From the NCBI GenBank assembly GCA_004376375.1, contig SOJX01000009.1:17570-81569 (forward strand): a stretch of 64,000 bases of DNA. Direction: 5' to 3'. Source of the DNA: Planctomycetota bacterium. GTDB lineage: Bacteria > Planctomycetota > E44-bin39. Below, one piece after another: positions 4,793 through 60,433 of this stretch. Below the pieces are notes generated by a model. That model ran no database searches. It was given only the letters and a program-made list of their open reading frames with translations, and was not told the DNA's origin. The first letter of the stretch is position 1. Each line of letters begins with the position of its first letter. The translations under genes were made by a program, and so were the position numbers.

Positions 4793-4815
4793 CTCCAGGT
4801 TTATTCCGGATTTCG

Positions 4816-4842
4816 GGGCACCGACCGCAATATGCGGTGCCC
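4816..4842 (+). terminator. GC-rich hairpin downstream of the HNH gene (8-bp stem GGGCACCG / CGGTGCCC, 11-nt loop) with no clear U-tract
   Basis: Inverted repeat seen directly after the stop at 4792. The absent T-run weakens a terminator assignment. Confidence 0.3.
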
Positions 4843-8861: not shown

Positions 8862-8870
8862 ATCACAATA

Positions 8871-12775: not shown

Positions 12776-12780
12776 CGCAC

Positions 12781-35540: not shown

Positions 35541-35588
35541 GTGTCAACTGTATTGACACATTACGGTCTGTGTCAATGTAGTTTACAC
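35541..35588. promoter_or_regulatory. two tandem palindromic candidate enhancer (UAS) sites GTGTCAA-N5-TTGACAC and GTGTCAA-N5-TTTACAC
   Basis: Perfect 7-bp IR at 35541-35559 and a one-mismatch copy at 35570-35588. Centres 29 bp apart. 100-150 bp upstream of the sigma-54 promoter and directly beside the sigma-54 activator gene. Confidence 0.45.
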
Positions 35589-38500
35589 TATCTTGGGCGT
35601 TGGATTCCCCACTCTTTTCTCTTCTTGAAAATCTGCTGTCGGCTGACACCGAGCAGTTTTGCCAGTTGGGTTTCATTGTGATTATGCTGGTGAGCGAGAA
35701 TGAATTCTTTCATATAATTTTCAAGTGAAAGTTTACGGCTGATTATGCTTTCCGGTTCAGGCTGATGTTCCCGGCTGCTCATTACTTTCACAATGTCACC
35801 GGTAGTAATGCGGTTGCCGGCCATTACGAACGCCTGCTGGAGTATGTTTCGCAGTTGTCGCACATTGCCGGGATAATTGTAGCCGGACATTTTCGCAAGC
35901 GCCTCCGATTCAAGCGGTTTTTCAGGCACGTCCAGATCACCGGCAAGTTCATTGAGAATGTGCTTTACAAGAAGCGGGATATCTTCGCGCCGCTCGCGAA
36001 GAGGCGGCAGCTCGATGCGGACAACGTTTAATCTGTAGAAAAGATCTTCACGGAACGCGCCCTGCTCCACAAGCTTTTCGAGCGGCATGTTGGTCGAGCA
36101 CACCAGGCGGATGTCAATGGGAATCGGCATCGCGGTGCCTATCCGCCTGACCTCCCGTTCTTCGATGACGCGGAGAAGCTTAACCTGCATTCCGAGCGGC
36201 ATGGAGGCTATTTCGTCCAGGAACAGAGTACCGCCGTCCGCCGACTCAATAAGTCCTGTTTTATCGGAGCCCGCGCCCGTGAAGGCGCCTTTAACGTGCC
36301 CGAAAAGCTCGCCTTCAAGCAGCGATTCCGTCATGGCGCCGCAATTGATCGAAACGAACGGCCCTTCCTTCCGGCTGCTGTTGTAGTGGAGCGCTTTTGC
36401 GACAAGCTCCTTCCCCGTCCCCGTTTCGCCGTAGATGTAGGCGGTCAGGTCGGTATCGGTAACGGAATCGAGGAGGCTGAAGAGTTCGCGCATCGGTTTC
36501 GACTGCCCTACGATGCTGGTGTAGGCGTACCGTGTCCGCACCTCTTTCTGAAGGGAGCTAAGCCTTGTCCGCATCTTTTCCTGCTCGACGGCGTTGGAGA
36601 TAATAGGCGCGATACGCTCGGCGAGTGCTTCGACGAAATGGAGATCGGCTTCGGTGAAACTGCGGGCGAGCGACGTGGTATCGAGATAGACCACCCCCAT
36701 CGTCCGGCCTTCGCTTTTAATCGGCACGCAGAGCACCGAGCAGAGGCTGAGGTCTACCACGCTTTTCGCGTCGCGAAGCGATTCGTCCATGTTAACGTTG
36801 GCGACAAGCCTTGACTGGCCGCTATTGATGACTTCTCCAACCATGGTGTGGCTTGTCTGGTATTCGGGCGAAGTGATTTCCCTGTCGCGAATGTTACGCA
36901 CCGACAGGTGTTTGAGGCCGGCACCCTCATCGACAAGGATGATAAAACCGCGCTCGGCCTGGATAGTGTCAAGCACCATAGCGAGTGCGAGGTCAAGCAG
37001 CTTTTCAACGTCAAGCTCGGTCGCGGCGAGGCGCGCGATCATCTCGAGGAGCGCCATCTCCCGCCGCGCTACATGACTATCGTATACGCCGTGGATATCC
37101 AGGACCTGTTGATCGAGTGTAAAATCCTCTTCGGGGAACTCGGTTATTTTTTCTTTTCCAGGCGGTCCTTTCCGGAAGGGGTCAACGTCATCCAACGGGC
37201 TGAAGAACGGAGATTCCCTCAGCTGCTGCCTGTCGTACCCTTCGGGCAGCACATCGGCAATGAGTTTATAGGCATTTTCCGCTTCATTGAAATGCCCGGC
37301 CGCGAGCTCGAGATTATCCTGAGTGGAGGCGGCGAGCGCGGCGGTGAGCGCGGCCTCGAAGACGAGTGCGATGTTATCGGTCCGGTATGCGGTTTTCAGG
37401 GCCTCGGCTGCGATTTCCCGGGCCTTTCCAGCCTTGCCGATTCTCAGGCTGCATCGCGCTTTCAGGATAGTGGTTTCGATTCCGGCAGCCATGCTGAGTT
37501 TTTCATTTTCAAGCCGTGCAAGGATTTTTTGCGCTGCCGGGATTCTTCCGGTTGTTATGAGTACCCCGGCCCCGGCCAGTTCGATGCCCCACCCGACCTG
37601 TCCGGTGATTTTCAATTCCTGCGCCTGTTCTATCAGACGGCGGGCGCGTTTGATATCTCCCGTGATCATGGCGTGCCTCGCGGAGAGGGCCAGCGCTTCG
37701 CCGAGCCTTGCAGGGCTCTGCGGCCCGGCAAGCTCCCGGGATTCGGACAGGTCCCGCTCGGCGGCTTCGAAATCACCGCAGAGGAACGCGAGCGCTTCCG
37801 CCCTGAGATTCAGGACCGTTGTTTCCAGCGGCGTTATGCCGGCTTTACGGGCAATCTGAAGGGCCTCTTCGAAGTATGCGAGCGCGTCGGCGGTCCTTCC
37901 GAGTACGGTGCACACCGTTCCGAGAGAGATGGGGCAATGCCGCTTGAGAGTAGAGCTTGCTGTTTTCCCCGCCACTTCACTGGCCTGCTCGAATGAGGAA
38001 AGGGCTTCCCTTGTTCGTCCCGAGGCGAGGTGGACGTCACCTATGTTTATCATCACGGCGCCGATACTTACTTCATCACCCGAAATCTCGAAGAACCGCT
38101 TGGCCGCGGTGTAGGCGTCGAGTGCTTCGTCGTACTGCCCGAAATCCTTGAGCACGTTGCCGATATTTCCCTGGGTGTATGCAACACCCATGAGGTTGCC
38201 TCTTTTTTCATAAGCATCGAGGGCGATATAGTAATGCACAAGCGCTTTTTCCGGTTTCCCTTTTTCCAGATCGATACCGGCCAGCAGGACGTGCATGCGC
38301 TCGAAATGGTCTTTCGCGGATTTCCGCCGCAGTATCCGGTTGGCGCGCTTCACGGCATCGGCATATTTTCCGCGCCCGTAATCAGAACTTGCGAGATGAC
38401 TGTCTATGGTATTAATTTTTTCCTTGTCTTTGAGAGACTTGAAGATGTCCCTTGCCTCGGACAATAACTTTCGTGCTTTCTCAGGCTCGCCTTTGTGCCC

Positions 38501-40921
38501 CGCGACGCGCCCCAGATGAATAAGCAACTCTCCCTTCAGGGGTTTTGAGTTTTTCACCCCCGGTCTGTCCTGCGCTTCCTGAAGGAAGAGTTCGGCTTCG
38601 TCCGCTTTTCCCGACCGCAGGCGAAGAGTAGTATGAAACCACGCAACGGTGGCGGCGTACTCCGGATATTTCCACAGCTCGTCGCTTGAAGCGGCGGTAA
38701 TGCAGTCAAAGACTCTCTCGAGCCTCGCGCGGCGCCAGTAACACTTGGCCAACCAGTCAAGCGCCTCGAACCATCCTTCCGTTCGGCCGGGCAGGCGTTT
38801 CTTGAGCGCTTCGAAAAGCCGGACAGCGGACGATATCACTCCGGTCACCGCTGCATGCTTCGCCCCATCCCAGAGCAGTGGCAGCAGTTCGTCTTCACCG
38901 ACGCCGGCTTTCTCCGCGTGTATCGCGCGCTCTATGAGCTCGGTATTTTTCTTTTTCAGATAAGAATATATCTGTCCGTGCATTGCGCGGCACTGCTCAC
39001 GAGGTATAATACGCAGGACAACTTCACCCAGACGACCGCTCGCGAATGCGTAGTTACCTTCTTCATCGGCCCAGAGCAGTCCACGCGAAAGCAGATGCTT
39101 AACCGCGGCGGCGCATGCGTCGGGCGGTATCGCGGACGCTTCCTGCAGCAGGTCGAATTCGGCGGGGCGTTCGACGCATGCGAGCGCGTCAACGACGACA
39201 CGCTCATCTTCGACCAGCGATTTGATTCTGCGCTGGAGCGCTTCTTCACCTTTTGCCGGCGGTTTCAGGCCGGCAAATGCCGCGGTTGTACGCCATTTCC
39301 CCGCCTCAAAGAAAAGGAGCCCGGTCTCAAAAAGCTGCTGAACGGTCTGCTCTATGATAAGCGGGTTCCCCCCGGCCGCATCAAGCACGGTAGACAGCAC
39401 ATTCGCGGGCAATTCGGAGCCGCCCAGCATGGCGGAAAGCAGTCCTGCCGCGGCTTCCCTGGTAAGCGGAGACAGCGAAACCTGCCCGGCGATTCCCTGT
39501 GCGCTCGAGCGGTCCATATACCCGATCACGGTTTTGGCGGTTTCCACCTCGGTATTGCACGCGCACAGAACAAGCAGAGGCACGTGCTTACCTTCCTGCA
39601 ATCCGAGCCAGAGCACCCGTGCGAGATGTTCGAGAAAGGAAAGGGTGTCTTCGTCAGCATTTTCCAGGTCGTCAATCGAAATAACCAGCGGCCGCAGGGC
39701 CGCTGTTTCCATGAGCAGGAGCGCAATATCGTGCATGACTCTGCCGTGCTTTACCATATCCGGGTCCCGCTCTTCCCCGGCAAGCATGCCCAGAGTTTCC
39801 TCGAACTCATCCAGAGTTTCTTTCGGAAGTGCCTGGATAATATTGCCGATAACTTCCGCAAAGGGACCGTAAGGCCGACGGCGCGAGGCCGAGCATCTGC
39901 ATTTTATGAGCAGGTTGCCTTTCAGTTGGGCAAAGTAGCCTGCTTCGCGCAGAAGGCGGCTTTTTCCGATTCCGGTCTCACCGGTAATAAACCATAGCGA
40001 AGGTTTGCCCGGACCCTCCCTGAGTGAATCCATCAGGGCCCTGAAATGGTCCAGCTCTTCCTCTCTTCCGATAAAACCGCCGCCGAGAAGATATGCAAGC
40101 GCTGTCTCGACCGTCTCCTCTTCCAGTGAAATATCCATGGCCTGGGAGAGCGCGCGATTGACCTCGTTGGCCGTATAATATCTCAAGCCGGGCTCGCGCT
40201 CGAGGAGGCGCAGGACAATACGCTCCAGCTCGACCGGGACATCTATTTTGAATTTACGCGGCGGCTCGGGCTCCGTCGCGGCCTGCAATCTGAGCACCTC
40301 GAGAATTGAATCGTCCTCGTACGGGCGCTTGCCCGCAATGGCTTCATAAAAGACGACGCCCAGCGAATACAGATCGGAGCGCGGATCGCCGAGCTCTCCG
40401 CGGACGACTTCAGGTGCGGCATAGCCTATCGTCCCGCGCATCGAGCCCGATATCGGCGTTTCGGTAGTCGCAAGGCCGAAGTCGATCAGCCTCGCGACCC
40501 GGTTCGTATCGACTATGATGTTGCCGGGCTTGACATCGTAATGAATTATTCCGCGGGAATGTATATGCTGAAGTGCGCGAAAGACCTGAGCGAAAAGACG
40601 GGACCCGTCTGCGAAGTCGAGACCTTTGCACATCTCAACGATATTACTTCCTTCGATGTACTCGGAAGTGTAGAACCACAGGCCGGATTTCTCGTCAAGG
40701 CCGAAATCGTAAACCCGCGCGATATTCGGGTGACGGATTTTGGTGAGGGTCGAAAACTCGTGCCGCATGAGCTCGAGGTGCCGCGTGCCCGGCGTCTCGA
40801 GCAGCTTCAGCGCAAGAAGTCTTTTGTCTTCAAGCCTGTCCCTTACCAGATAAACCTTCCCCGCAGCTCCCTTGCCGAGAAGCTTTTCAACTTTATAACG
40901 GTTTGCGACAACTTTTGGCAA
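35588..40921 (-). CDS. Multidomain regulator: Ser/Thr protein kinase / STAND-type P-loop NTPase / TPR repeats / GAF / sigma-54-interaction AAA+ / Fis-type HTH
   Basis: 1777 aa. Kinase motifs GKGAAGKVY, LALKLL, HYDVKPGNI, DFGLA, GTIGYAAPE. P-loop GETGIGKSRLL. Long TPR-like region. Sigma-54 AAA+ motifs GETGTGKELVAKALH, ELFGHVKGAFTGA, GGTLFLDEI. C-terminal HTH LAKLLGVSRQQIFKKRKEWGI. Confidence 0.85.
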   Translation of the reverse strand: MPKVVANRYKVEKLLGKGAAGKVYLVRDRLEDKRLLALKLLETPGTRHLELMRHEFSTLTKIRHPNIARVYDFGLDEKSGLWFYTSEYIEGSNIVEMCKGLDFADGSRLFAQVFRALQHIHSRGIIHYDVKPGNIIVDTNRVARLIDFGLATTETPISGSMRGTIGYAAPEVVRGELGDPRSDLYSLGVVFYEAIAGKRPYEDDSILEVLRLQAATEPEPPRKFKIDVPVELERIVLRLLEREPGLRYYTANEVNRALSQAMDISLEEETVETALAYLLGGGFIGREEELDHFRALMDSLREGPGKPSLWFITGETGIGKSRLLREAGYFAQLKGNLLIKCRCSASRRRPYGPFAEVIGNIIQALPKETLDEFEETLGMLAGEERDPDMVKHGRVMHDIALLLMETAALRPLVISIDDLENADEDTLSFLEHLARVLWLGLQEGKHVPLLVLCACNTEVETAKTVIGYMDRSSAQGIAGQVSLSPLTREAAAGLLSAMLGGSELPANVLSTVLDAAGGNPLIIEQTVQQLFETGLLFFEAGKWRTTAAFAGLKPPAKGEEALQRRIKSLVEDERVVVDALACVERPAEFDLLQEASAIPPDACAAAVKHLLSRGLLWADEEGNYAFASGRLGEVVLRIIPREQCRAMHGQIYSYLKKKNTELIERAIHAEKAGVGEDELLPLLWDGAKHAAVTGVISSAVRLFEALKKRLPGRTEGWFEALDWLAKCYWRRARLERVFDCITAASSDELWKYPEYAATVAWFHTTLRLRSGKADEAELFLQEAQDRPGVKNSKPLKGELLIHLGRVAGHKGEPEKARKLLSEARDIFKSLKDKEKINTIDSHLASSDYGRGKYADAVKRANRILRRKSAKDHFERMHVLLAGIDLEKGKPEKALVHYYIALDAYEKRGNLMGVAYTQGNIGNVLKDFGQYDEALDAYTAAKRFFEISGDEVSIGAVMINIGDVHLASGRTREALSSFEQASEVAGKTASSTLKRHCPISLGTVCTVLGRTADALAYFEEALQIARKAGITPLETTVLNLRAEALAFLCGDFEAAERDLSESRELAGPQSPARLGEALALSARHAMITGDIKRARRLIEQAQELKITGQVGWGIELAGAGVLITTGRIPAAQKILARLENEKLSMAAGIETTILKARCSLRIGKAGKAREIAAEALKTAYRTDNIALVFEAALTAALAASTQDNLELAAGHFNEAENAYKLIADVLPEGYDRQQLRESPFFSPLDDVDPFRKGPPGKEKITEFPEEDFTLDQQVLDIHGVYDSHVARREMALLEMIARLAATELDVEKLLDLALAMVLDTIQAERGFIILVDEGAGLKHLSVRNIRDREITSPEYQTSHTMVGEVINSGQSRLVANVNMDESLRDAKSVVDLSLCSVLCVPIKSEGRTMGVVYLDTTSLARSFTEADLHFVEALAERIAPIISNAVEQEKMRTRLSSLQKEVRTRYAYTSIVGQSKPMRELFSLLDSVTDTDLTAYIYGETGTGKELVAKALHYNSSRKEGPFVSINCGAMTESLLEGELFGHVKGAFTGAGSDKTGLIESADGGTLFLDEIASMPLGMQVKLLRVIEEREVRRIGTAMPIPIDIRLVCSTNMPLEKLVEQGAFREDLFYRLNVVRIELPPLRERREDIPLLVKHILNELAGDLDVPEKPLESEALAKMSGYNYPGNVRQLRNILQQAFVMAGNRITTGDIVKVMSSREHQPEPESIISRKLSLENYMKEFILAHQHNHNETQLAKLLGVSRQQIFKKRKEWGIQRPR

Positions 40922-41520: not shown

Positions 41521-41710
41521 GTTCTTCAAAGGTATTTCTCAATTTTTCTCATTATTTTTTTGAAATGTTTTTCGAACCGGAGATGCTCTTCGAATGTTTT
41601 ATAAGCCATTTCAGAATATTGCCCGTAATTGCTTTCGATTTTCCGTAAAGCACTTCCTGTTTCGGATGCGGTCTCGACACAAACGCCACATCCCGTTTTT
41701 TGCACAAACT
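41519..41710. repeat. about 190-bp segment roughly 93-95% identical to 46065..46260 (3' ends of paralogous genes, same orientation)
   Basis: Direct comparison of the two loci: near-identity through the last 60 or so codons, then decay to about 70%. Confidence 0.7.
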
Positions 41711-42824
41711 CTCCCAGCGTCGTTTCGTTGTTAACAATCACAGGCAGCCCTGACCTCAGGGCATAAGCGACTTTGCCGGAAGACAAGCCGATTACCTTGA
41801 TATTACTCCATCCACTGCGTCTTGAGCGGACAGGCTTATAAAAAGCTATAATCGCATCCGCGCTTGAAATAAGCTGATCAAATAATTTTCTGGAAGCCGG
41901 TTTTTCAGAAAAGATTACTCTTGAATTTCCTTCAGCAATATCTTTAAGATATTCCCATCGATATTTGTTTTCCTCTCCCATTTTATTAGCATGAAAGTGT
42001 GTATGGATTACCAGGACCCAATTGGCGGGCCATTTCCTCGAAGCCGGAATGATATCCTCAAGCATCGTCCATTCGCTTAAACCCCCGGCATGAAGCAGGA
42101 TTTTTTTTCTTTTGTCAATGTCAAGCATTTCGTGCCAGAAATTGAATCTTTTCTTCATCAAAGGCCCGCCAGGCGAGTTGGGGAGGTATTGGAGCTTATG
42201 GATGGGGATTAAATTATCCTGCGCAAACAGATCACCTCTTTCCTTGTCCTGTATAATTACAAAACGCGCTCTCCTGCTGTAGGTTTTTTCGATATTTTTA
42301 AATAGCTTCTCTCTCGGCTCCGTGATTTCTCCAGACAGCAGCAATTCCAGGGAAATATATATAAAGGGTATGCCAAGAATGCGATACAGCGCCGAAGACC
42401 TGTATGCTATATCTTTCATTGGCAAAATTCCTTCAGGTTCAATAACGATAAATAAAGAATATGGCTTTTTCTTCCAAAGCCTATACAAGCACATTTGCTC
42501 AGAATTTCTGCTGATAAAATCCTGGATTTTTATTAGCCACCGTTTGAGCTTGTTGGAAAATGGTATTGCAGGTTCCTTATTTGTTTTTGTCAGCTTTTTC
42601 TTATCATTATTCTGTCGAATTTCAAAATATCGCACCTTATTTGCATCGAAATCGGGAGATACTGCAAAAGGCGTTTTAATTGAATATATGTCAACAGAAT
42701 ATCCTTCTTTTGCCAGATAATCAATCATGCAATGAAGCGTAGGTACCGAATCAAGGTAAGCATGTGGACATATAATACATATTTGTCTTATACTCAACGG
42801 TATATCCTCAGCAAATATTTTCAA
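41526..42824 (-). CDS. putative GT-B-fold glycosyltransferase-like protein, paralog A
   Basis: 432 aa. C-terminal GLSSGKVAYALRSGLPVIVNNETTLGEFV resembles GT1/GT4 nucleotide-sugar binding regions. C-terminal 60 aa nearly identical to the protein at 46072..47343. Confidence 0.45.
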   Translation of the reverse strand: MKIFAEDIPLSIRQICIICPHAYLDSVPTLHCMIDYLAKEGYSVDIYSIKTPFAVSPDFDANKVRYFEIRQNNDKKKLTKTNKEPAIPFSNKLKRWLIKIQDFISRNSEQMCLYRLWKKKPYSLFIVIEPEGILPMKDIAYRSSALYRILGIPFIYISLELLLSGEITEPREKLFKNIEKTYSRRARFVIIQDKERGDLFAQDNLIPIHKLQYLPNSPGGPLMKKRFNFWHEMLDIDKRKKILLHAGGLSEWTMLEDIIPASRKWPANWVLVIHTHFHANKMGEENKYRWEYLKDIAEGNSRVIFSEKPASRKLFDQLISSADAIIAFYKPVRSRRSGWSNIKVIGLSSGKVAYALRSGLPVIVNNETTLGEFVQKTGCGVCVETASETGSALRKIESNYGQYSEMAYKTFEEHLRFEKHFKKIMRKIEKYL

Positions 42825-43178: not shown

Positions 43179-43586
43179 ATGGATCATGTGGAAAAAATAA
43201 CCCACGACGAAAAAGTATTGGCCCTTATAGTCCGGAAGGAGTTCCGCCCGGAAAAAACCACCTTCCTCACTCCGGAAAGTTTCAACATACAATTGGGGTT
43301 TGTGATATATCCTGAAAACGGCGAGATCACGCCCCATGCACATAAGCCCCTCAAGAGAGAAATCATCGGCACTGCAGAAGTTCTAATCGTCCAGAAGGGT
43401 AAGTGCATTGTCGACATTTACACTAACCAGGGCGAACCGGTAGCCAGCAGCACCCTGGCTCAGGGAGACATACTTTTTCTGGTTGACGGCGGCCATGGTT
43501 TCAGGATGTTAGAGGATACCGTTCTCCTTGAAGTTAAACAGGGGCCGTACATCGGCCTGGACGAGAAAGAGCGATTCCGGAAATGA
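43179..43586 (+). CDS. cupin-fold protein, candidate NDP-hexose 3,4-ketoisomerase (Tyl1a/FdtA-like)
   Basis: 135 aa, beta-rich, with His residues (HAHKP). Sits immediately before a DegT aminotransferase and a TylM1-like methyltransferase; 4-nt overlap. Confidence 0.45.
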   Translation: MDHVEKITHDEKVLALIVRKEFRPEKTTFLTPESFNIQLGFVIYPENGEITPHAHKPLKREIIGTAEVLIVQKGKCIVDIYTNQGEPVASSTLAQGDILFLVDGGHGFRMLEDTVLLEVKQGPYIGLDEKERFRK

Positions 43587-44713
43587 TTCCCGTAAACGAA
43601 CCGCTTTTCGGAGAGAAAGAACTTGCGTACGTGACAGATTGCGTCCGTACGGGCTGGGTTTCTTCTGCCGGGAAGTACATCAACGAGTTTGAGGAAAAGT
43701 GGTCTGCCTATTGCGGAAGAAAATACGGAGTTGCAGTGGCAAACGGCACGGTAGCGCTTCAGCTTGCAGTGGCTGCGCTTGAACTGGAGTCGGGGAGCGA
43801 GATTATTATGCCGAGCTTTACGATAATCTCCTGCGCTGCCGCAGCCATCTACAACAATTGCATTCCCGTGTTTGCCGACTGTGATCCTGAGACATGGTGC
43901 ATAACGGTCGATGAAATAGTGCCTGGAATAACAGAAAAAACGCGTGCAATAATGCCTGTTCATATTTACGGCCACCCGGCTGAAATGGACCCGATAATTA
44001 ACGTAGCCAAAAAGCACGGACTGGCCGTGATAGAAGATGCGGCAGAAGCACACGGTGCGGAATATCTATCGAATTGCGGCGGTAAGGAAACCTGGAAACG
44101 GTGCGGCAGCTTTGGAGATGTTAGCTGTTTCAGTTTCTACGCCAATAAGCTCGTTACAACCGGCGAAGGCGGAATGTTAGTCACAGATAACGGGCAACTT
44201 GCAGAGCGAGCAAGGCTATTACGTAATCTTGCTTTCGAGCCTGACCGCAGGTTTCATCACGCTGAATTGGGATTCAATTTCCGCTTTACAAATATTCAGG
44301 CTGCTCTCGGCCTTGCACAGGTAGAGCGGATGGATGAAATTATTGAGCGGAAACGCCGAATGGCAAATTATTACTCCAACAACCTGGCCGGGATCGATGG
44401 CCTTCAACTCCCTGTCGAAAGGGATTGGGCAAGAAGCGTTTACTGGATGTATGGGATCGTTATCCATGAAGATACCGGAATGAACGCTGCTCAATTTGCG
44501 GCAAAACTGAAGGAGCGCGAAGTCGATACTCGCCCATTCTTTCTGGGGTTGCATGCCCAGCCTGCCTTGAAAAGTTATATGAATTTTACTGAAAACGACT
44601 TTCCAGTTACAAACCGAATTGCCCGCCAGGGTCTTTACCTGCCTTCGGGGCTCGCCCTCACCGAAGAGCAGCAGGCAGTCGTCTGCAAAGCTGTCCGAGA
44701 GGTTCTGAGTTGA
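43583..44713 (+). CDS. DegT/DnrJ/EryC1/StrS-family PLP-dependent sugar aminotransferase
   Basis: 376 aa. GRKYGVAVANGTVALQLA, and SFYANKLVTTGEGGMLVTDN carrying the PLP Lys. Confidence 0.8.
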   Translation: MIPVNEPLFGEKELAYVTDCVRTGWVSSAGKYINEFEEKWSAYCGRKYGVAVANGTVALQLAVAALELESGSEIIMPSFTIISCAAAAIYNNCIPVFADCDPETWCITVDEIVPGITEKTRAIMPVHIYGHPAEMDPIINVAKKHGLAVIEDAAEAHGAEYLSNCGGKETWKRCGSFGDVSCFSFYANKLVTTGEGGMLVTDNGQLAERARLLRNLAFEPDRRFHHAELGFNFRFTNIQAALGLAQVERMDEIIERKRRMANYYSNNLAGIDGLQLPVERDWARSVYWMYGIVIHEDTGMNAAQFAAKLKEREVDTRPFFLGLHAQPALKSYMNFTENDFPVTNRIARQGLYLPSGLALTEEQQAVVCKAVREVLS

Positions 44714-45483
44714 AAGAAGCCTTTGGAAAAACATATTCAGAGGCATACGACGCTTTTTACAGAGAAAAGGATTACGGTGCCGAATGCGACCTTATTCAAC
44801 TGATTTTCAATAAATATGGTCAGGGCAAAATCACACGAGTTCTTGACCTGGGGTCCGGCACGGGAAATCACGCCTGTCACCTGGCAGCACGAGGATACAG
44901 GGTAACCGGGGTAGATGCCTCCGAGCACATGCTGAATTATGCCCGGGAAAAATGTGCCGCTACCGATCAGAAAAACCCGCCGGAGTTTCACCAGGGCGAC
45001 ATACGGTCAGTCAAACTCGGGGAAAAGTATGGCGCCGTTTTGATGATGTTTGCCGTGCTTGGTTACCAGGTTACCGACGCGGATGTCCTTGCCGCTTTAA
45101 AAACTGCAAGAAATCATACGGATGCAGGCGGACTTCTCGTTTTTGACACATGGTATGGTCCGGCCGTCCTCAATGAAAAGCCGGGCAGGCGCGTATTAAA
45201 GATCCCGACCGGCGATGGTTATTGTTTGAGAACGGGTGAAGGTACTTTGAATGTCGAGCAGCATATTTGCACGGTAAATTATCATTTGCAGTATTTTACC
45301 GAAGACAAGATGATTTCCGAATCCCGGGAAACGCATCTGATGCGCTATTTTTTCGGGGATGAGGTCAAGTTATTCCTCCGGGAAGCAGGTTTCTCGTTTT
45401 TGCGGATGGGCGCATTTCCGGATTTTGACAAGGAACCAAGTGAGGATACCTGGAATGTAATTACTGTTGCGAAAGCCGAATAA
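44710..45483 (+). CDS. SAM-dependent methyltransferase resembling TylM1/DesVI NDP-3-amino-sugar N,N-dimethyltransferases
   Basis: 257 aa. AYDAFYREKDYGAECDLI, VLDLGSGTGNHA, HQGDIRSVKLGEKYGAVLMMFAVLGY parallel the TylM1 pattern YDLFY..KDYAAEA / LDVACGTG / HQGDMRDF.LGRKFSAV..MFSS.GY as I recall it. Confidence 0.6.
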   Translation: MKEAFGKTYSEAYDAFYREKDYGAECDLIQLIFNKYGQGKITRVLDLGSGTGNHACHLAARGYRVTGVDASEHMLNYAREKCAATDQKNPPEFHQGDIRSVKLGEKYGAVLMMFAVLGYQVTDADVLAALKTARNHTDAGGLLVFDTWYGPAVLNEKPGRRVLKIPTGDGYCLRTGEGTLNVEQHICTVNYHLQYFTEDKMISESRETHLMRYFFGDEVKLFLREAGFSFLRMGAFPDFDKEPSEDTWNVITVAKAE

Positions 45484-46071: not shown

Positions 46072-47343
46072 TCAAAGGTATTTCTCAATTCTTCTCAGTA
46101 TTTTTTTGAAATGTTTTTCGAACTGGAGATGCTCTTCGAATGTTTTATAAGCCATTTCAGAATATTGCTTGTAATTGCTTTCGATTTTCCGTAAAGCGCT
46201 TCCTATTTCGGATGCGGTCTCGACACTAACGCCACACCCCGTTTCTGTTACAAACTTCCCCAGTGTCGTCTTATTGTTCACTATTACAGGCAACCCTGAC
46301 CTTAAAGCATAAGAAGCTTTACCAGAAGACAAACCAATTACTCTCATATTAGTTAGTAAATGACGCGCATTGCCTGTGGGAGTTGGAAAAGCAATTATTA
46401 CATCAGCGCTCGAAACAAGCTTGTCATATTTCTGTCTGCTTGCAGGGTGTTGAGAAAAAACTACCTTTGGATTACCTGAAGCAAGTTTTTTAAGAAATTC
46501 CCAACGAATAAGCTTAGCCTCAGGCATTTTGTCATTGATTAATGTTGTATGAATAACCAATATCCAACCTGTTGGCCATAATTGAGTAGATGAAATGACA
46601 TCTTCAAGCGTAGTCCATTCCGCGAAGTCTCCTGGATGAAGTACAACTTTAATATTATCCTCTAAGCCAAATTCCTGATGCCAATATCTAGATTTCGATT
46701 TTTCCGCTAACATAAGAGGCGAGTTCGGAAGGTATTCAAGCTTATGCATAGGAATAAAGTTATCTTGCGCAAACAATTTTCCCCTATCTTTATCCTGGAT
46801 AATATTAAAAAAACTTCTTTTACTATAAACACGTTCCAGTTTTTTAAATACGGATTCTCTCGGGTTGAATAATTCATAGGACAATATAAGCTCAAGAGAC
46901 AAATAAATAAAAGGGATACCTAAAAATCGATATAGGATTGACGATTTATAGGCGATATGCTTCAAAAAGGGAATTCCTTCCGGTTCTACAACTATAAAAA
47001 AAGAATATGGGCGAGTAGTCCATATTTTATATAAACGATTTATTTCCGCGAATCCCCCGATAAAATTAAAAAGTTTCCTGATTGCTCGCTTAAATAGAAT
47101 CCAAAGGCGCGATATTTTCAAGTTGTTCTTTTTTAATCCGGCAGACTCCTCTATTATGTTAGTAATATCGATGAATCTTACGTTTCTAGATTCAAACTTA
47201 GGGGTTGTAGTATGAGGAGACAAAAATGAAAAGACGTCTATAGAATATCCGTTTCTTGTCATTAAATCAATTAACCCGTGCAGAGTTGGCACGGAATCCA
47301 AATAAGCGCTCCGGAAAATTAGGCAAACGGATTTTTTTTTCAT
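46072..47343 (-). CDS. putative GT-B-fold glycosyltransferase-like protein, paralog B
   Basis: 423 aa. Same architecture as 41526..42824. N-termini diverged; C-termini nearly identical. Confidence 0.45.
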   Translation of the reverse strand: MKKKSVCLIFRSAYLDSVPTLHGLIDLMTRNGYSIDVFSFLSPHTTTPKFESRNVRFIDITNIIEESAGLKKNNLKISRLWILFKRAIRKLFNFIGGFAEINRLYKIWTTRPYSFFIVVEPEGIPFLKHIAYKSSILYRFLGIPFIYLSLELILSYELFNPRESVFKKLERVYSKRSFFNIIQDKDRGKLFAQDNFIPMHKLEYLPNSPLMLAEKSKSRYWHQEFGLEDNIKVVLHPGDFAEWTTLEDVISSTQLWPTGWILVIHTTLINDKMPEAKLIRWEFLKKLASGNPKVVFSQHPASRQKYDKLVSSADVIIAFPTPTGNARHLLTNMRVIGLSSGKASYALRSGLPVIVNNKTTLGKFVTETGCGVSVETASEIGSALRKIESNYKQYSEMAYKTFEEHLQFEKHFKKILRRIEKYL

Positions 47344-47802: not shown

Positions 47803-48708
47803 ATGACAGTGGGGTCTGCAGCTGTGAGTAATTTTGTCGAGAGCAATGGGAAAGACATGAGAAAACTTGAGTTAGCCATTGTAATGGGCATAACCGACAA
47901 TTGGGCCTTCGCTGTAGCGACTATTCTATTCGCCCTGCGGAAAGATGCGAAGAGAATCAATTTTGACGTCATCGTATTTCATGACGGCTTGTCCCGGCGC
48001 TCTAAGAACCTTTTATCTGGGATTCATCCTTGTATGTTTTTGGACTATGAACTCGATCTAATAGACGCTGACAAGTTTGCTCGTGTATCTAAGATGGCTT
48101 TTGCGCGTTACGAATGCTTTGCATTGCTTGAAAAGTATTGCCAGGTATTGTGGATTGATGCCGATGCGCTTCTCAAAAGCAGTATTTTACCACAGGTGAA
48201 TAGTGAAAACTCAGGCATATCAATGTATTGCCACAAGGATACACCTATTAGCGTAAGCTTTACGGATGTCGTTGCAGGTTATAACATGGAAAAAGAATGT
48301 TACAACGATGGCATATTGTTATTGTCCGATAAATTGCCGAAATACGAGCAGCTCAGGCAGTGGTGTTACGAAAAAACAAACGAATGGGCAACCAAAATAA
48401 GTTCAGACCAGGCGATAATCAACCTGATGCTCCAGGAATTCGATCTGGATGTTACGGAGCTCGATATCAAGTTCAACTGCCCTCCGGAGAAGGAAACCAA
48501 CAGTACGGTCATAATCCATCCCTGGGGAGAAAGAAAATTCTGGAACAGGCTTGTTCACCCTCTTTGGGACAAGTATTATTACAAGTGGAGAAAGATGGGG
48601 GGGGATGGTCCTGAAATCAAACGCGGGCGCCGATCGAGATACGTGAACCTGAGACTGGTGAAACACCGGCTCCGCCTTTTCTGGAAAGAATTCAAGTCTT
48701 CGGACTAA
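47803..48708 (+). CDS. putative GT8-like glycosyltransferase
   Basis: 301 aa. N-terminal ITDNWAFAVATILFAL, DxD-like WIDADALL, and general GT-A layout. A weak call. Confidence 0.4.
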   Translation: MTVGSAAVSNFVESNGKDMRKLELAIVMGITDNWAFAVATILFALRKDAKRINFDVIVFHDGLSRRSKNLLSGIHPCMFLDYELDLIDADKFARVSKMAFARYECFALLEKYCQVLWIDADALLKSSILPQVNSENSGISMYCHKDTPISVSFTDVVAGYNMEKECYNDGILLLSDKLPKYEQLRQWCYEKTNEWATKISSDQAIINLMLQEFDLDVTELDIKFNCPPEKETNSTVIIHPWGERKFWNRLVHPLWDKYYYKWRKMGGDGPEIKRGRRSRYVNLRLVKHRLRLFWKEFKSSD

Positions 48709-48733: not shown

Positions 48734-49630
48734 ATGACTGTAAATCAAACACGCTACGACTACTTCCTCATCTGGGGCAACGGCCTCAAGTATACAAGGA
48801 ATATTATTGATTTTATCCGCGGCAGGCCGGAGTTCGATATCCTGAAGATAATCCGGCATAAACCTGAGAGCATAGACGAATTTGTAAAGAGAGTATATGA
48901 AAACGATGCTGTTCCATGGCGTCACCTCGTCGCCAAAACGGAATACCTCCTCGAATCCGAGTCGGACGTGCTGGTTATTTTCGTTAAGAACCTTCAGCCG
49001 CGGGAGGAAATCGTAGGAGACGAGGATTTCCGCCACCCTCAATGCATGCTCATGAAAGAGATGAAGGATGAGATAAGGAATAAATATAACCCCCGCGTGG
49101 ACGGCCGCCGAACCGAGGAACACGTAATTCACGGCTCCGATTTCGAGTCTCAGACCAACCACATGCTGAAACTGCTTGGGTGCGAAGAAGGGCTGGAGTA
49201 TTTGGCAAAAGTTCCCAATCCCGTAATTGAAGTGCCGCACCATATCTTCACGTTTGACCGGTTCAGGATACGGTCCGTGAAGACTTCCGAAGTATACTGC
49301 AACATCCTCCGCGGAGATGCCGAAGAGTGGTCAAAAGACCGCCTGCCGATTAAGGAAACCCCCCACTACGGATATTTGAAGGGCGTTCGTGAACCTTACC
49401 GGCTCTATTGGAAAAAATTTGGGGGGAAACTGCTTCTCGACGACCATACCCCTGAGGGATTTGACCAGCTTGCAGGCGATTTCGACTACCTTATGCCGCC
49501 ATACGAGACTTCCTACATTCTTGTTGAAAAAAGCAGTCTGGGTGGTTATACAATACTTGACGGAGTACACAGGGCCAGTATATTGGCGGCATCAGGCGTG
49601 GAAATGTGGATCGCGGCAGTGGTAGGTTAA
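48734..49630 (+). CDS. hypothetical protein in glycan operon
   Basis: 298-aa ORF, co-directional with a 25-nt gap. No motif recognised. Confidence 0.45.
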   Translation: MTVNQTRYDYFLIWGNGLKYTRNIIDFIRGRPEFDILKIIRHKPESIDEFVKRVYENDAVPWRHLVAKTEYLLESESDVLVIFVKNLQPREEIVGDEDFRHPQCMLMKEMKDEIRNKYNPRVDGRRTEEHVIHGSDFESQTNHMLKLLGCEEGLEYLAKVPNPVIEVPHHIFTFDRFRIRSVKTSEVYCNILRGDAEEWSKDRLPIKETPHYGYLKGVREPYRLYWKKFGGKLLLDDHTPEGFDQLAGDFDYLMPPYETSYILVEKSSLGGYTILDGVHRASILAASGVEMWIAAVVG

Positions 49631-51576: not shown

Positions 51577-52413
51577 TTGGAGGGACAGATGCTGCGAAGG
51601 TTGATTAGGCGATATATAGGGCGTATTGCACGACGACAAGCCCCTCAAGATTTTTTTGAGGAACTCCAATTGCTTGCGCTAAAAGGTTTGAATATAGGAG
51701 AAGCCTTTTCAATACACAACAGTGGTGAATTTAATGATAAAATTGTTAACCTCCTGCGGGAAAGCAGATCTAACATTATTTTCGATGTTGGAGCCAATGT
51801 TGGCGAGTATTCTCGCCAAATGCACCTTATAACAGGTGGCAAATATAAAATTTATGCCTTTGAACCTGCAGCGGAAACTTTTATTAAACTTTCTGAAAAC
51901 CTTAAAAATATAAATGTCCATTTGTATAATATTGGATTCGGGCTGAATGATGAAAAGCTGACTCTCTATTCTGACAATCCGACCTCTGGCCTTGCATCGC
52001 TTTATAACAGAAGGCTCAACCATTTTGGGATTTCGATGAAGCATCCACAGGAAGTTCAAATCAGGAGGCTCGATGGTTTTTGCTCTGAAATGGGAATTGA
52101 TCATATAGGATTCCTGAAATTGGATGTAGAGGGGCATGAGTTGGCCGTTCTCCGGGGCAGCTCCAGCTTGCTTAAAAACAACAAGATTGATTTAATCCAA
52201 TTTGAATTTGGAGGCTGCAATATTGATTCAAGAACATTCTTCCAGGATTTTTTCTATTTGCTTGACTCTAATTATGAAATATTCAGGATTACCAGAAACG
52301 GCCTTCAATACATTCGCAAATACAAGGAAACACATGAGGTTTTCATAACCACCAACTATCTGGCAGTTACACGAGACATGGCGGACAAGAGTGACATTAA
52401 ATGTAATATATAA
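51577..52413 (+). CDS. FkbM-family methyltransferase
   Basis: 278 aa. IFDVGANVGEYS and KIYAFEP motifs are typical of FkbM-domain methyltransferases. Confidence 0.6.
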   Translation: MEGQMLRRLIRRYIGRIARRQAPQDFFEELQLLALKGLNIGEAFSIHNSGEFNDKIVNLLRESRSNIIFDVGANVGEYSRQMHLITGGKYKIYAFEPAAETFIKLSENLKNINVHLYNIGFGLNDEKLTLYSDNPTSGLASLYNRRLNHFGISMKHPQEVQIRRLDGFCSEMGIDHIGFLKLDVEGHELAVLRGSSSLLKNNKIDLIQFEFGGCNIDSRTFFQDFFYLLDSNYEIFRITRNGLQYIRKYKETHEVFITTNYLAVTRDMADKSDIKCNI

Positions 52414-52659: not shown

Positions 52660-53610
52660 TTGGCAATGAAACCTGAAACCGCCGACATTTCGGTAATCAT
52701 CCCGGCATATAATGCAGAAAAGCATATCTCAAGGGCGCTGAACAGCATTGCCCTTCAAACGCGGGTACCCGACGAAGTTATTGTAGTTGATGATGGATCA
52801 AGTGACGGTACTGCAGATGCTGTCCGGTGTTGGGCGCGCGAAACCGGCATCACGACAAAATTGCTGTGCCAACGCAACAAGGGCGCCGCAGCCGCGCGCA
52901 ATGCGGGTATTTCCGTCGCCGGCGGAAGATACATTGCCTTCCTTGATGCGGATGATTCCTGGCGTCCCGAGAAATTAGCGCGCCAGGCGGAATTTATGAA
53001 CAGCCATCCCGAGTGTGATATTCTGTTTTCCGATTTTGAATTCTTCGATGAGTCTGGTGCAAGCCGCAGCTATCACGATACGGTTGTTTCTCCCGCGCGC
53101 GGCGATATATTCCTCCCGCTTTATACTACGGATTGCTTCTGTTGGAGCAGCACCGTGTTTGCCCGCCGACGTGTTTTTGATAATAGTTTTCGCTTTGATA
53201 CGCGATATACCGTTGCCGAGGACTACGACCTTTGGCTGCGATTGAGCCTCCATTACCGTTTTGACTATCTTCCAGACATTCTTGCCAGATATCACTGGGT
53301 ATCGGACAGCCTGTCCCGGCGTACTGCAACAATTTTTATTGCACAAGCTTCCGTTTTCCGCCGCATCGCCGATCTGGCCGGGGCGCGGTTGTCAAGTAGT
53401 GTAATAGCGAAACGGCTTCGGAAATCTTATACAAGAGCGTTCACATCATTATGGCAATCCAAATGTAAAGTTGGCGCTTTAGCCTACTTCATCCGCGTGC
53501 TCACGATAGACGGTTGGCAGTTGCGTATTTCGCTACCGTTTTCTCGGTACGTATTCGTAACCATCGTCAGGAGCATTATCGGTGGGAGGAAACATACGCG
53601 GAATAAGTGA
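52660..53610 (+). CDS. family 2 glycosyltransferase
   Basis: 316 aa. ISVIIPAYNAEKHI, VIVVDDGSSDGT, FLDADD (DxD) indicate a GT-A fold. Confidence 0.75.
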   Translation: MAMKPETADISVIIPAYNAEKHISRALNSIALQTRVPDEVIVVDDGSSDGTADAVRCWARETGITTKLLCQRNKGAAAARNAGISVAGGRYIAFLDADDSWRPEKLARQAEFMNSHPECDILFSDFEFFDESGASRSYHDTVVSPARGDIFLPLYTTDCFCWSSTVFARRRVFDNSFRFDTRYTVAEDYDLWLRLSLHYRFDYLPDILARYHWVSDSLSRRTATIFIAQASVFRRIADLAGARLSSSVIAKRLRKSYTRAFTSLWQSKCKVGALAYFIRVLTIDGWQLRISLPFSRYVFVTIVRSIIGGRKHTRNK

Positions 53611-53951: not shown

Positions 53952-55223
53952 TTAGTCTTCCTTGATGGGAACGGGCATCTTGGCTTCCATGGGCACACCA
54001 AGCGGTCCGCCTCCGGCACTAAAAAAACGAGCGGCTTGTCCCCAGTATCCAGCAGTGCTGATTTCAAAAGGACACAGGGATGGGTGGTGAAAATACTGAC
54101 TGCCTGTTCCGGCCCCCAGCGCGAGCAGATAGTTTCTCGGCTTAAGCACGTTTGCCGGAGCGATGCATTCATAGACCCAGGTTCCTGCAAGACGTTTTTC
54201 ATAGAGTTCCGGAAAAAGATCCAAATCGCTCATGCCCCACAAGGATTGGCCTAACGCATCCGTAATATTTGTTACAACCGAAAGGCCGCTAATGTCCTTT
54301 TCTATACGATAGGTGATTCGAAATTTGATTGGTTCATCTGCCCTGAAAACACTTGTTGGTTCATCTTTGCTATTAAGCATCTCCAGCCGCAGGAATTGAA
54401 CTGCATGCTCCGCACCATCGTCGAACGTATATGCACCCGATTTAACCCCCATACCCATAAATAAATACTTCTCACAAATTGACTCCGAGTCACCGATTTT
54501 ATTAACTTTTCCTTCTTCAAGCCAGATCGTTTTCGGGCAAAGCCTTGTTATTGCGGACATGTTATGACTCACAAAAAGAATAGTCCTGCCTTCTTCGGCA
54601 ACAGAGTCCATTCTCCCCAAACACTTTTTCTGAAACTCCACATCACCAACGGCAAGAACTTCGTCAATAAGCAATATTTCCGGCTGCAGGTGTGCGGCAA
54701 CCGCGAACGCGAGCCGAACGTACATACCGCTCGAATAGCGCTTGACCGGCGTGTCGATGAACTTCTCGATGCCGCTGAAATCCACTATCTCGTCGAAATT
54801 TGCCTTGATCTCTGCTCGCTTCATGCCGAGTATCGCGCCGTTGAGAAATATATTCTCCCTGCCCGTTAGCTCGGGGTGGAAACCGGTACCCACTTCGAGC
54901 AGGCTAGCCACTCGACCATTTATTTCCGCGCGCCCTTTCGTCGGCTCGGTTATGCGGGATAGTATCTTGAGGAGTGTGCTTTTCCCGGAGCCATTTTTTC
55001 CTATTATGCCGAGAATCTCGCCGCGCTTCATCTCGAACGATACATCCTTCAGCGCCCATATCGTGTCCTTGGCGTCTTCATCGAGCAGGCTCTTGCCGGT
55101 AAGCCGCCTGAAGCGGGAAAATAACCAGTCCGAGGCCATTTCACGGAATGAATCGTGTTTTTTCCGCATACCGATCCGGTACACTTTGGAAAGGTCTTCG
55201 ACTTTAATAACGATGTCCGACAA
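53952..55223 (-). CDS. polysaccharide-export ABC transporter ATP-binding protein (Wzt/KpsT/TagH-like) with C-terminal extension
   Basis: 423 aa. Walker A GKNGSGKSTLLK, signature YSSGMYVRLAFA, Walker B LLIDEVLAVGD, H-loop SHNM. Extra C-terminal domain of about 150 aa, as in O-antigen-binding Wzt. Confidence 0.85.
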   Translation of the reverse strand: MSDIVIKVEDLSKVYRIGMRKKHDSFREMASDWLFSRFRRLTGKSLLDEDAKDTIWALKDVSFEMKRGEILGIIGKNGSGKSTLLKILSRITEPTKGRAEINGRVASLLEVGTGFHPELTGRENIFLNGAILGMKRAEIKANFDEIVDFSGIEKFIDTPVKRYSSGMYVRLAFAVAAHLQPEILLIDEVLAVGDVEFQKKCLGRMDSVAEEGRTILFVSHNMSAITRLCPKTIWLEEGKVNKIGDSESICEKYLFMGMGVKSGAYTFDDGAEHAVQFLRLEMLNSKDEPTSVFRADEPIKFRITYRIEKDISGLSVVTNITDALGQSLWGMSDLDLFPELYEKRLAGTWVYECIAPANVLKPRNYLLALGAGTGSQYFHHPSLCPFEISTAGYWGQAARFFSAGGGPLGVPMEAKMPVPIKED

Positions 55224-55243
55224 ACGATACCTCGGAAATGAGA

Positions 55244-56260: not shown

Positions 56261-56411
56261 AGCCGAAATGCCGTTTCTGGCTCCAAGCCGCTTCGAATTT
56301 CCCCTGTTGAGCCGTCATAACCTCTTTTTCAGCAAGCTCATTACATACAGTCTCTGCCGATCCCGAATATTGAACAAGGTTTTACCTTCTCTTTTCGTCA
56401 ACCTGTTTCCG

Positions 56412-57620: not shown

Positions 57621-57625
57621 TTCAT

Positions 57626-58621: not shown

Positions 58622-58705
58622 TTCTAGCCCCTTAGTCTGCTATTGCATCTCTAATTATCGGGTACGCTACGACAACAGGTTCAATAGATTATCGTTACCA
58701 TGCGA

Positions 58706-59767: not shown

Positions 59768-59796
59768 GGCTGCAGGCTCTTTCCATTTCTCGTCCC

Positions 59797-60432: not shown

Positions 60433-60433
60433 T

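Follow-up and report, generated by a model that had tools for sequence, protein, structure and literature searches.

Within a 64,000-nucleotide stretch of DNA from a metagenome-assembled genome (MAG) of Planctomycetota (the window, meaning the whole stretch analyzed, part of a 95-kb contig), we investigated a cassette of three genes encoding a cupin, a DegT aminotransferase, and an S-adenosylmethionine (SAM)-dependent methyltransferase. The cassette is very probably a module for the amination and N-methylation of a nucleoside diphosphate (NDP)-linked sugar and, if it is, the substrate probably comes from guanosine diphosphate (GDP)-mannose. On balance, we favor the reading that the cassette makes an N-methylated or N,N-dimethylated amino-dideoxyhexose, derived from GDP-4-keto-6-deoxymannose, for a surface glycan. 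The chemistry, from keto-sugar to amino sugar to N-methyl sugar, is known; what is new is the combination of an unclassified cupin, an aminotransferase resembling GDP-perosamine synthase (Per), a probable GDP carrier, and a surface-glycan setting across uncultured phyla. An earlier reading of the window from its letters alone (the sequence-only reading) had proposed a Tyl1a/TylB/TylM1-like route to a 3-dimethylamino-3,6-dideoxyhexose in a surface glycan. Of this proposal, the N-methylated amino-sugar cassette in a surface-glycan setting stood; the 3-amino position is one of two candidates, C3 and C4 GDP-sugar synthases being alike in sequence. Its general scheme, in which a cupin acts first, then an aminotransferase, and then a methyltransferase, may still apply to a GDP-sugar.

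The cassette and its recurrence across phyla

All three open reading frames (ORFs) were confirmed, in the order given by the sequence-only reading (lengths in amino acids, aa).

43179–43586, plus strand: cupin, 135 aa
43583–44713, plus strand: DegT aminotransferase, 376 aa
44710–45483, plus strand: SAM methyltransferase, 257 aa, TTG start

Because the junctions between the genes, ATGA and TTGA, are each a 4-bp overlap and a Shine-Dalgarno-like GGAGAG lies 6–11 nt 5′ of the cupin ATG, the genes form one translationally coupled operon. Promoter and terminator scans of its surroundings performed no better than on shuffled sequence. The product names at NCBI are generic (TET39254.1, hypothetical protein; TET39255.1, DegT-family aminotransferase; TET39256.1, class I methyltransferase).

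A scan of ∼185,600 species-representative genomes with a cupin alignment revealed relatives of the cupin in 292 genomes, nearly all of them MAGs, with carriers that include Chloroflexota, Acidobacteriota, Gemmatimonadota, Planctomycetota, Deltaproteobacteria, Verrucomicrobiota, Actinomycetota, and Bacillota. From these 292, we fetched 80 loci, 44 of which have full context, and determined the gene content around the cupin by tblastn and ORF analysis.

Aminotransferase within 3 kb of the cupin: 65 of 80 loci; 37 of 44 full-context loci
Methyltransferase within 5 kb of the cupin: 58 of 80 loci; 36 of 44 full-context loci
Aminotransferase and methyltransferase both near the cupin: 32 of 44 full-context loci

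The order of the trio is the same in most of the 80 loci, across many phyla, and because the same trio recurs in this way its arrangement is not due to chance. Homologs of the methyltransferase (1843 at E ≤ 1e-10) lie on contigs that bear the same trio of small protein, DegT protein, and methyltransferase, one of them from a Methanomethyliaceae archaeon, and the cupin and methyltransferase families each have more than 1000 metagenomic members. In four long loci (L021, L023, L065, and L076), the cupin and aminotransferase are paired without the methyltransferase, a pattern that favors a role for the cupin in amination. In three others (L008, L043, and L072), the cupin is accompanied by the methyltransferase, and the aminotransferase is displaced or was undetected nearby.

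Some cassettes contain or adjoin extra genes, which may mark variant end products. A short-chain dehydrogenase/reductase that is RmlD-like (66 bits on the rmlD model) lies directly 5′ of the cupin in L001 (5428–6339). Between the cupin and the aminotransferase, L059 (10400–11380), L047, and L060 encode a protein of ∼250–330 aa for which no family was identified (Pfam scan of the L059 protein). The gene inserted in the L004 cassette (10484–11446) belongs to the same divergent glycosyltransferase family as two genes that flank the cassette in the window (see below).

Families of the cassette enzymes and flanking transferases

The aminotransferase has the pyridoxal phosphate (PLP)-dependent DegT/DnrJ/EryC1 fold (PF01041, 382 bits). 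Its best match in the PDB is the GDP-perosamine synthase of Caulobacter (3bn1, E 7e-83, 281–282 bits), to which it is 40% identical over 372 residues (pairwise E 7e-97). The PLP lysine is kept, the K of FSFYANK in the cassette enzyme aligning with the K of FSFFGNK in Per; the 3dr4 chain reads GNA rather than GNK at this position, and we take it to be an active-site lysine mutant. C3 aminotransferases scored lower (QdtB, E 5e-52, 180 bits; DesV, E 4.5e-48, 167 bits; both served as stand-ins for TylB). Judged by sequence, the enzyme is closer to GDP-perosamine synthase than to the TylB/DesV/QdtB type, contrary to the TylB-like assignment of the sequence-only reading. In polyene producers, the synthases of GDP-perosamine (C4) and GDP-mycosamine (C3) share 69–73% identity, without diagnostic motifs, and both are 36–40% identical to the perosamine synthases of lipopolysaccharide (LPS) pathways (PMC8944477). 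Because C3 and C4 GDP-sugar aminotransferases are thus indistinguishable by sequence, the amine position is unreadable from that of the cassette enzyme, and a literature search on the GDP-binding determinants of Per returned nothing informative. The best NCBIfam model for the aminotransferase was that of the LegC family (TIGR04181); identity with LegC was rejected because its score of 333.8 bits falls below the cutoff of 420 and a true LegC, 34% identical to the cassette enzyme, is encoded elsewhere in the window (56412–57620, 456.6 bits).

The methyltransferase matched the class I SAM core models of Pfam (Methyltransf_25/11/23/12/31). Its segments YDAFYREKDYGAECD and HQGDIRSVKLGEKYGAV..MF..LGY, which the sequence-only reading had compared with TylM1 and DesVI, are present and align with DesVI, KedS8, and TylM1, and its SAM loop LDLGSGTGNH, of the GxGxG type, aligns with LDVACGTGMH of TylM1. 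The single-sequence PDB matches of the methyltransferase (METHYLTRANSFERASE) were DesVI (8.6e-20), KedS8 (5e-16), TylM1 (∼2e-15, residues 7–232 of 257), and CalS10 (1.4e-12). A profile of 30 family members gave the same four enzymes (DesVI, 1.4e-28, residues 4–230; TylM1, 7.5e-24; KedS8, 1.4e-23; CalS10, 1e-19), with other characterized classes at 1e-17 or weaker, so that the closest characterized relatives are DesVI and TylM1 rather than unrelated methyltransferases. Two methyltransferases of unknown function, 1wzn and 3d2l, score as well as this group, and 1wzn is the top profile match over the N-terminal half. The AlphaFold2 (AF2) model (predicted local distance difference test score, pLDDT, of 91.2) superposes on TylM1, DesVI, and CalS10 with template modeling (TM) scores of 0.81–0.88 and root mean square deviations of 2.2–2.6 Å, the Rossmann core and the C-terminal β-strand cap included. 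This fold match is not exclusive, as 3d2l, 1y8c, 1wzn, PsmD, CcbJ, and CypM superpose similarly. The bacillithiol N-methyltransferase NmbA was rejected as a match, given a TM score of only 0.62–0.72 and an unfit context. These scores place the methyltransferase in the DesVI/TylM1/KedS8/CalS10 clade of sugar N-methyltransferases. Because this clade includes enzymes that act on C4 amines (PMC12719100), similarity to TylM1 says neither "C3" nor "dimethyl."

The cupin had no match in Pfam at E ≤ 0.01, nor at E ≤ 10 (PF05523 included), and none among PDB sequences, 2pa7, 4o9e, 4zu4, and 5tpv included, whether searched as a single sequence or as a family profile. The sole family model that it touched was WbuC (TIGR04366; 33.1 bits, E 4e-8, cutoff 42), on which two homologs from other loci scored 30–32 bits; it is at most a distant relative of the WbuC family, on which the literature that we found deals only with mcr-9 and blaCTX-M neighborhoods and names no function. 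Its homologs fall into 1395 clusters of ∼133 aa with 57–65% identity, all hypothetical or unnamed, and the invariant residues include H53, H55, R60, E67, H106, R109, and K120. By these searches of Pfam, NCBIfam, and PDB sequences, the family is unclassified and tightly conserved.

The AF2 model of the cupin is a β-barrel (pLDDT 82.8) whose top Foldseek matches are the 3,4-ketoisomerases FdtD, WlaRA, and FdtA, followed by RmlC-type and WbcA epimerases, all of them weak. To compare the cupin with FdtA, we verified the FdtA sequence against PDB entry 2pa7, gathered genuine PF05523 homologs, and aligned 21 of them. Profile-profile comparison (hhalign) of this alignment with one of 33 cupin sequences gave a probability of 7.2% over 20 columns. 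The 20 columns pair H-x-H-K/R-x-L-E...G-x-C with the catalytic His49/His51 region of FdtA (HAHKKLEQ), so that the invariant H53-x-H55-K/R-x-L of the cupin aligns locally with the FdtA histidine pair, within that 7% match. H-x-H is the generic cupin motif 1. The third invariant histidine, H106, suggests a metal site in the cupin, and we know of no metal site of that kind in FdtA. With Pfam, PDB sequence and profile searches, and hhalign all negative, membership of the cupin in the FdtA/QdtA/Tyl1a family was rejected, and with it the Tyl1a-type ketoisomerase of the sequence-only reading. The cupin may nevertheless act like an NDP-keto-sugar isomerase or epimerase.

Two divergent glycosyltransferase paralogs flank the cassette, one on each side, and, as the sequence-only reading had noted, the setting includes glycosyltransferase and Wzm/Wzt genes; Wzm and Wzt were identified by their Pfam domains.

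41526–42824, minus strand: GT-B (GT4-like) glycosyltransferase, paralog 1, 432 aa, divergent
46072–47343, minus strand: GT-B (GT4-like) glycosyltransferase, paralog 2, 423 aa, divergent
53952–55223, minus strand: Wzt, ABC ATPase with Wzt_C glycan-binding domain (PF00005 and PF14524)
55244–56260, minus strand: Wzm, ABC-2 permease (PF01061, ABC2_membrane)

Paralog 1 had no Pfam match and a weak C-terminal match to sugar-transferase models; a member of the family matched Glycos_transf_1 weakly. The paralogs are 56% identical overall, with C-terminal ends of ∼90 residues that are visibly more alike than the remainder, which points to gene conversion or to a donor-binding module common to both. Paralog 2 lies in the stretch of lowest GC content in the window (0.383, compared with 0.45–0.58 elsewhere). 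The family of the paralogs (TRANSFERASES) adjoins the cassette in 21 loci, and a standard GT4 family stands there in 26 others. Because the two flanking families are homologous (hhalign probability 97.6%, E 3e-12, 269 columns), the module is effectively one of glycosyltransferase, cupin, aminotransferase, and methyltransferase, and the flanking paralogs are candidate transferases for the cassette sugar. A Wzt-type ATPase lies near the cassette in eight other loci, and this context makes it probable that Wzm/Wzt export the glycan that receives the sugar.

Nucleotide carrier, proposed pathway, and competing explanations

Evidence on the nucleotide carrier comes from the dehydratases near the cassette. 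Gmd was called at ≥45% identity to a reference that scores 558 bits on TIGR01472, and RmlB likewise at ≥45% identity. Gmd is present within 10 kb of the cupin in 13 of the 80 loci and within ∼2 kb of it in six. The order is cupin-aminotransferase-methyltransferase-Gmd in L010 and L054, aminotransferase-cupin-methyltransferase-Gmd in L053, and aminotransferase-Gmd-methyltransferase-cupin in L074; in L081 and L082, Gmd stands beside the cupin. A clear Fcl-like reductase, which could explain Gmd independently, occurs in only three Gmd-bearing loci (L010, L067, and L069). Genuine RmlB was found in two of the 80 cupin-anchored loci, 6–8 kb off and never adjacent. As the sequence-only reading had stated, the window contains no rmlA or rmlB (tblastn with genuine RmlA and RmlB), and a gmd homolog was likewise missing from the 64 kb. 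A route through thymidine diphosphate (dTDP)-sugars was rejected as the main reading on these results, and the dTDP-glucose origin that had been proposed is unlikely, as the dehydratase beside or inside related cupin-anchored cassettes is Gmd, not RmlB.

A sibling contig (L083), which is 100% identical to the window over 55165–64000 and runs 7.1 kb further, extends the locus. Its genes beyond the window are those of a PseF-like cytidylyltransferase, a glycosyltransferase, and a Gmd-family dehydratase of 320 aa, the last at a window-equivalent position of ∼66,990–67,950, ∼3 kb past the right end; these 7 kb contain no rmlA or rmlB. On the gmd model the dehydratase reached 340 bits, compared with 78 on that for dTDP-glucose dehydratase; it is a likely GDP-mannose dehydratase of the same locus.

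We propose the following pathway. A 4,6-dehydratase encoded elsewhere would give an NDP-4-keto-6-deoxyhexose, most probably GDP-4-keto-6-deoxy-D-mannose from Gmd. The cupin would then rearrange the keto-sugar, either by moving the keto group to C3 or by epimerizing a neighboring carbon; the Per-like PLP aminotransferase would add the amine; and the DesVI/TylM1-like SAM methyltransferase would methylate that amine once or twice. Finally, one or both of the flanking GT4-like transferases would put the sugar from its GDP-(di)methylamino-dideoxyhexose form on the surface glycan exported by Wzm/Wzt. What the analysis shows is the gene structure, the families of the aminotransferase and methyltransferase, the conservation of the trio, and its link with Gmd and with dedicated glycosyltransferases; the carrier, the reaction of the cupin, the place of the amine (C3 or C4), the number of methyl groups (one or two), and the acceptor glycan are inferences.

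A role for the cupin in preparing the keto-sugar is suggested by its tight coupling to the aminotransferase and by its absence from perosamine gene clusters, none of which, to our knowledge, contains such a cupin. A 3,4-keto shift, leading to a C3 amine and a mycosamine-type sugar, is one possible reaction, at somewhat less than an even chance. Epimerization at C3 or C5, leading to a C4 amine in a non-manno configuration, would also fit. WbcA (5buv), among the fold matches of the cupin, is presumably a further epimerase of GDP-sugars, and the cupin epimerases DdahB and MlghB act on GDP-4-keto-6-deoxy sugars (PMC7949155). The three invariant histidines would also suit an enediol mechanism assisted by a metal, like that of cupin-type sugar isomerases. 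In its most specific form, the proposal would make the cupin the first dedicated GDP-4-keto-6-deoxy-D-mannose 3,4-ketoisomerase, possibly metal-dependent via H53/H55/H106, and the product GDP-3-(dimethylamino)-3,6-dideoxy-mannose (N,N-dimethylmycosamine); this version is rather unlikely.

With the pathways of dTDP-mycaminose (Tyl1a-TylB-TylM1) and dTDP-desosamine (DesV-DesVI), the cassette shares the logic of keto-sugar rearrangement, PLP-dependent transamination, and SAM-dependent N-methylation, and its methyltransferase is related to DesVI and TylM1 in sequence and structure. However, its cupin falls outside the Tyl1a/FdtA family, its aminotransferase is nearer to GDP-perosamine synthase, its carrier is likely GDP rather than dTDP, and its setting is a Wzm/Wzt surface glycan rather than a polyketide cluster. 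The FdtA-FdtB-FdtC and QdtA-QdtB-QdtC systems (dTDP-Fuc3NAc and dTDP-Qui3NAc of S-layer glycans and O-antigens) likewise have a cupin of ∼135 aa 5′ of a DegT aminotransferase, followed by an enzyme that modifies the nitrogen. In the cassette, by contrast, the cupin has no significant homology to PF05523, although the H-x-H-K motif aligns locally, the nitrogen would be methylated rather than acetylated, and the precursor genes point to GDP-mannose.

The Gmd-Per pathway to GDP-perosamine (Caulobacter, Vibrio cholerae O1, and Escherichia coli O157) is close to the cassette in its aminotransferase, and Gmd adjoins or lies inside several related cassettes. In most related loci, however, a conserved cupin and methyltransferase accompany the aminotransferase, whereas the amine of perosamine is N-acylated, not N-methylated; our literature search found no link between perosamine and an N-methyltransferase. 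In the GDP-mycosamine pathway (AmphDIII/AmphDII and NysDIII/NysDII), Gmd and a Per-like aminotransferase bring about C3 amination after a 3,4-keto shift, the aminotransferase being at the same distance from LPS perosamine synthases (36–40% identity) as the cassette enzyme; a 3,4-ketoisomerase for this pathway has never come to light, and the shift is believed to occur spontaneously (PMC8944477). The cassette differs in having a dedicated cupin, and mycosamine is not N-methylated. KedS8 and CalS10, which methylate C4-amino sugars, are in the clade of the cassette methyltransferase and share a four-strand cap, but they are enzymes of secondary metabolism without a cupin or Per-like partner, and the sugar of KedS8 is dTDP-linked (PMC12719100). 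The RmlC-type epimerases among its fold matches (∼175–197 residues) are longer than the cupin and are not significantly similar to it in sequence.

So far, N-methylated amino sugars are familiar chiefly as parts of antibiotics, and the cassette would place one in cell-surface glycans. At neutral pH, a secondary or tertiary amine on such a sugar carries a positive charge and would alter surface charge and possibly recognition by phages, antimicrobial peptides, and the immune system. If the cupin isomerizes or epimerizes a GDP-keto-sugar, it would represent a new enzyme family in deoxysugar biosynthesis and might supply the GDP-sugar 3,4-ketoisomerase that was never found, of use in the glycoengineering of polyene antibiotics. 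If the product is N,N-dimethylmycosamine, this sugar would occur widely among uncultured Chloroflexota, Acidobacteriota, Gemmatimonadota, Planctomycetota, and Deltaproteobacteria, as well as in some archaea. We found no description of it as a surface-glycan sugar and, in the O-antigen literature, no dimethylamino GDP-sugar. A 174.09-Da residue of the S-layer glycan of Kuenenia (Planctomycetota) was rejected as a match, because it fits di-O-methyl-deoxyhexose (174.089), whereas dimethylamino-dideoxyhexose has a calculated mass of 173.105.

Several points weigh against a GDP-linked, cupin-rearranged sugar. The fold matches of the cupin are weak (best Foldseek E 3.5e-3, TM score ∼0.45), and its activity is one that we wholly infer. 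Neither Gmd nor RmlB lies within 10 kb in most loci, and the counts of the two stand without a background rate for glycan loci. The Gmd-family gene past the window is below the equivalog cutoff (340 versus 415 bits) and ∼21.5 kb from the cassette. The substrates of TylM1, DesVI, and KedS8 are all dTDP-sugars; moreover, residues Y14, S120, and H123 of TylM1, for which the PDB holds mutant entries, correspond to F5, V116, and Y119 here. F5 is an invariant Phe across the methyltransferase family, and DesVI too has Tyr at the position of TylM1 H123. At L001, which was found via its methyltransferase and is separate from the 80 cupin-anchored loci, the cassette is directly preceded by RmlA (462 bits), RmlB (475 bits), and the RmlD-like gene, with Gmd 8 kb downstream, and on another contig RmlA-like, dehydratase, and RmlC genes lie 6.5 kb from the cassette. 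Some lineages, at least, may therefore use a dTDP substrate.

We weighed four other explanations. In a pathway like that of dTDP-mycaminose, RmlA and RmlB, a Tyl1a/FdtA-type cupin, a TylB-type aminotransferase, and a TylM1-type methyltransferase would yield a dTDP-3-dimethylamino-3,6-dideoxyhexose. The contiguous rml genes of L001 agree with this route, and so do the dTDP-3-amino-sugar substrates of DesVI and TylM1, the nearest relatives of the methyltransferase; the parallel with the order isomerase, aminotransferase, modifier; and the top folds of the cupin, which are dTDP-sugar 3,4-ketoisomerases, together with the local alignment of H53-x-H55 with the FdtA histidines. We nevertheless consider it improbable, as the cupin fails PF05523 and the profile-profile test, GDP-perosamine synthase outscores QdtB and DesV by ∼100 bits as a match to the aminotransferase, RmlB is adjacent in none of the 80 loci while Gmd lies within ∼2 kb of the cupin in six, and the window with its next 7 kb lacks rmlA and rmlB, yet has a Gmd-family gene.

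A plain GDP-N-methyl- or N,N-dimethyl-perosamine would result if a C4 synthase acted directly on the product of Gmd and the cupin were accessory, regulatory, or later-acting; it would be a modest extension of known chemistry. The conservation of the cupin speaks against so minor a role: it is the most conserved member of the module (57–65% identity across phyla), its gene is coupled in translation to that of the aminotransferase, the two stay together in loci that lack the methyltransferase, and its nearest folds are isomerases and epimerases of NDP-keto-sugars, whereas characterized perosamine clusters, as far as we know, need no cupin. This explanation therefore has a low probability, even though Per is the closest solved relative of the aminotransferase, the C4-amine enzymes KedS8 and CalS10 share the clade of the methyltransferase, and the aminotransferase is displaced or undetected nearby in L008, L043, and L072.

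The aminotransferase might instead act in a branch of nonulosonic acid synthesis, on the LegB/PseB product (NDP-2-acetamido-4-keto-2,6-dideoxyhexose), with N-methylation of the 4-amine giving an N-methylated bacillosamine-like sugar or a modified legionaminic or pseudaminic acid. The LegC family does provide its best NCBIfam model (334 bits), a cluster of LegB, LegC, PtmE-like, and NeuB genes lies 11–20 kb away in the window, and in L030 the gene right after the methyltransferase encodes a genuine PseB (505 bits). The aminotransferase nonetheless falls short of the LegC cutoff, and the window already encodes a true LegC (457 bits); by tblastn, most of the 80 loci have no LegB or LegC relatives near the cassette; PseB was found at one locus only, in a screen that did not cover other nonulosonic acid genes; and the dehydratase that recurs embedded in the cassette is Gmd. 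Such a branch is very unlikely. Least probable is N-methylation of an aminated lipid or metabolite by genes that stand in glycan loci by chance: the fold is common to CypM, CcbJ, PsmD, and NmbA at similar TM scores, and 1wzn, of unknown function, tops the profile search over the N-terminal half of the methyltransferase, but the aminotransferase is in the DegT family of sugar aminotransferases (382 bits), and the neighbors of the cassette, in dozens of loci from different phyla, include glycosyltransferases, Wzm/Wzt, and dehydratases of NDP-sugars.

Remainder of the window

Other genes of the glycan locus lie between paralog 2 and Wzt, among them two adjacent ORFs without a Pfam match, the first of which also had no NCBIfam match.

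47803–48708: GT8 glycosyltransferase
48734–49630, plus strand: ORF, 298 aa
49632–50366, plus strand: ORF, 244 aa
50399–51559: Glyco_trans_1_2 protein
51577–52413: FkbM methyltransferase
52660–53610: GT2 glycosyltransferase

To the right of Wzm, a nonulosonic acid cluster with mixed legionaminic and pseudaminic features extends over 56412–63997 (minus strand) and L083 1–7132. Its LegC scores 457 bits, its LegB-like dehydratase 451 (cutoff 475), and its PseG-like hydrolase 118, which is below the cutoff; it further encodes a CBS-nucleotidyltransferase (PtmE-like), a NeuD/PglD acetyltransferase, a PIG-L deacetylase, a GNAT protein, and NeuB. Past the right end of the window follow the PseF-type cytidylyltransferase (212 bits, above the cutoff), the glycosyltransferase, and the Gmd-family dehydratase described above. 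This mixture of Leg and Pse genes is unusual, as is the deacetylase. Outside the window, a cassette also adjoins a nonulosonic acid gene in L030, from an Anaerolineae MAG, where the genuine PseB (12299–13294, 505 bits, above the cutoff) stands directly 3′ of the cassette methyltransferase; this is the second such case.

Immediately upstream of the glycan locus, 35588–40921 (minus strand) encodes a single polypeptide of 1777 aa in which a Ser/Thr protein kinase, an AAA_16 ATPase, TPR repeats, a GAF domain, and a sigma-54 activator AAA+ domain are joined and which could be a regulator of the locus. A defense island occupies 269–12775 and possibly extends to 23561.

269–3334: type I restriction protein HsdR
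5192–7555: TerB-N/TerB/TerB-C protein
7539–8861: BrxC/BrxD-like ATPase
8871–11078: DEAD-box helicase
11519–12775, minus strand: PD-(D/E)XK nuclease
12781–18339, minus strand: large unannotated ORF, 1852 aa
19444–22374, minus strand: large unannotated ORF, 976 aa

Within this island, the trio of TerB protein, BrxC/D-like ATPase, and helicase looks like a compact defense system.

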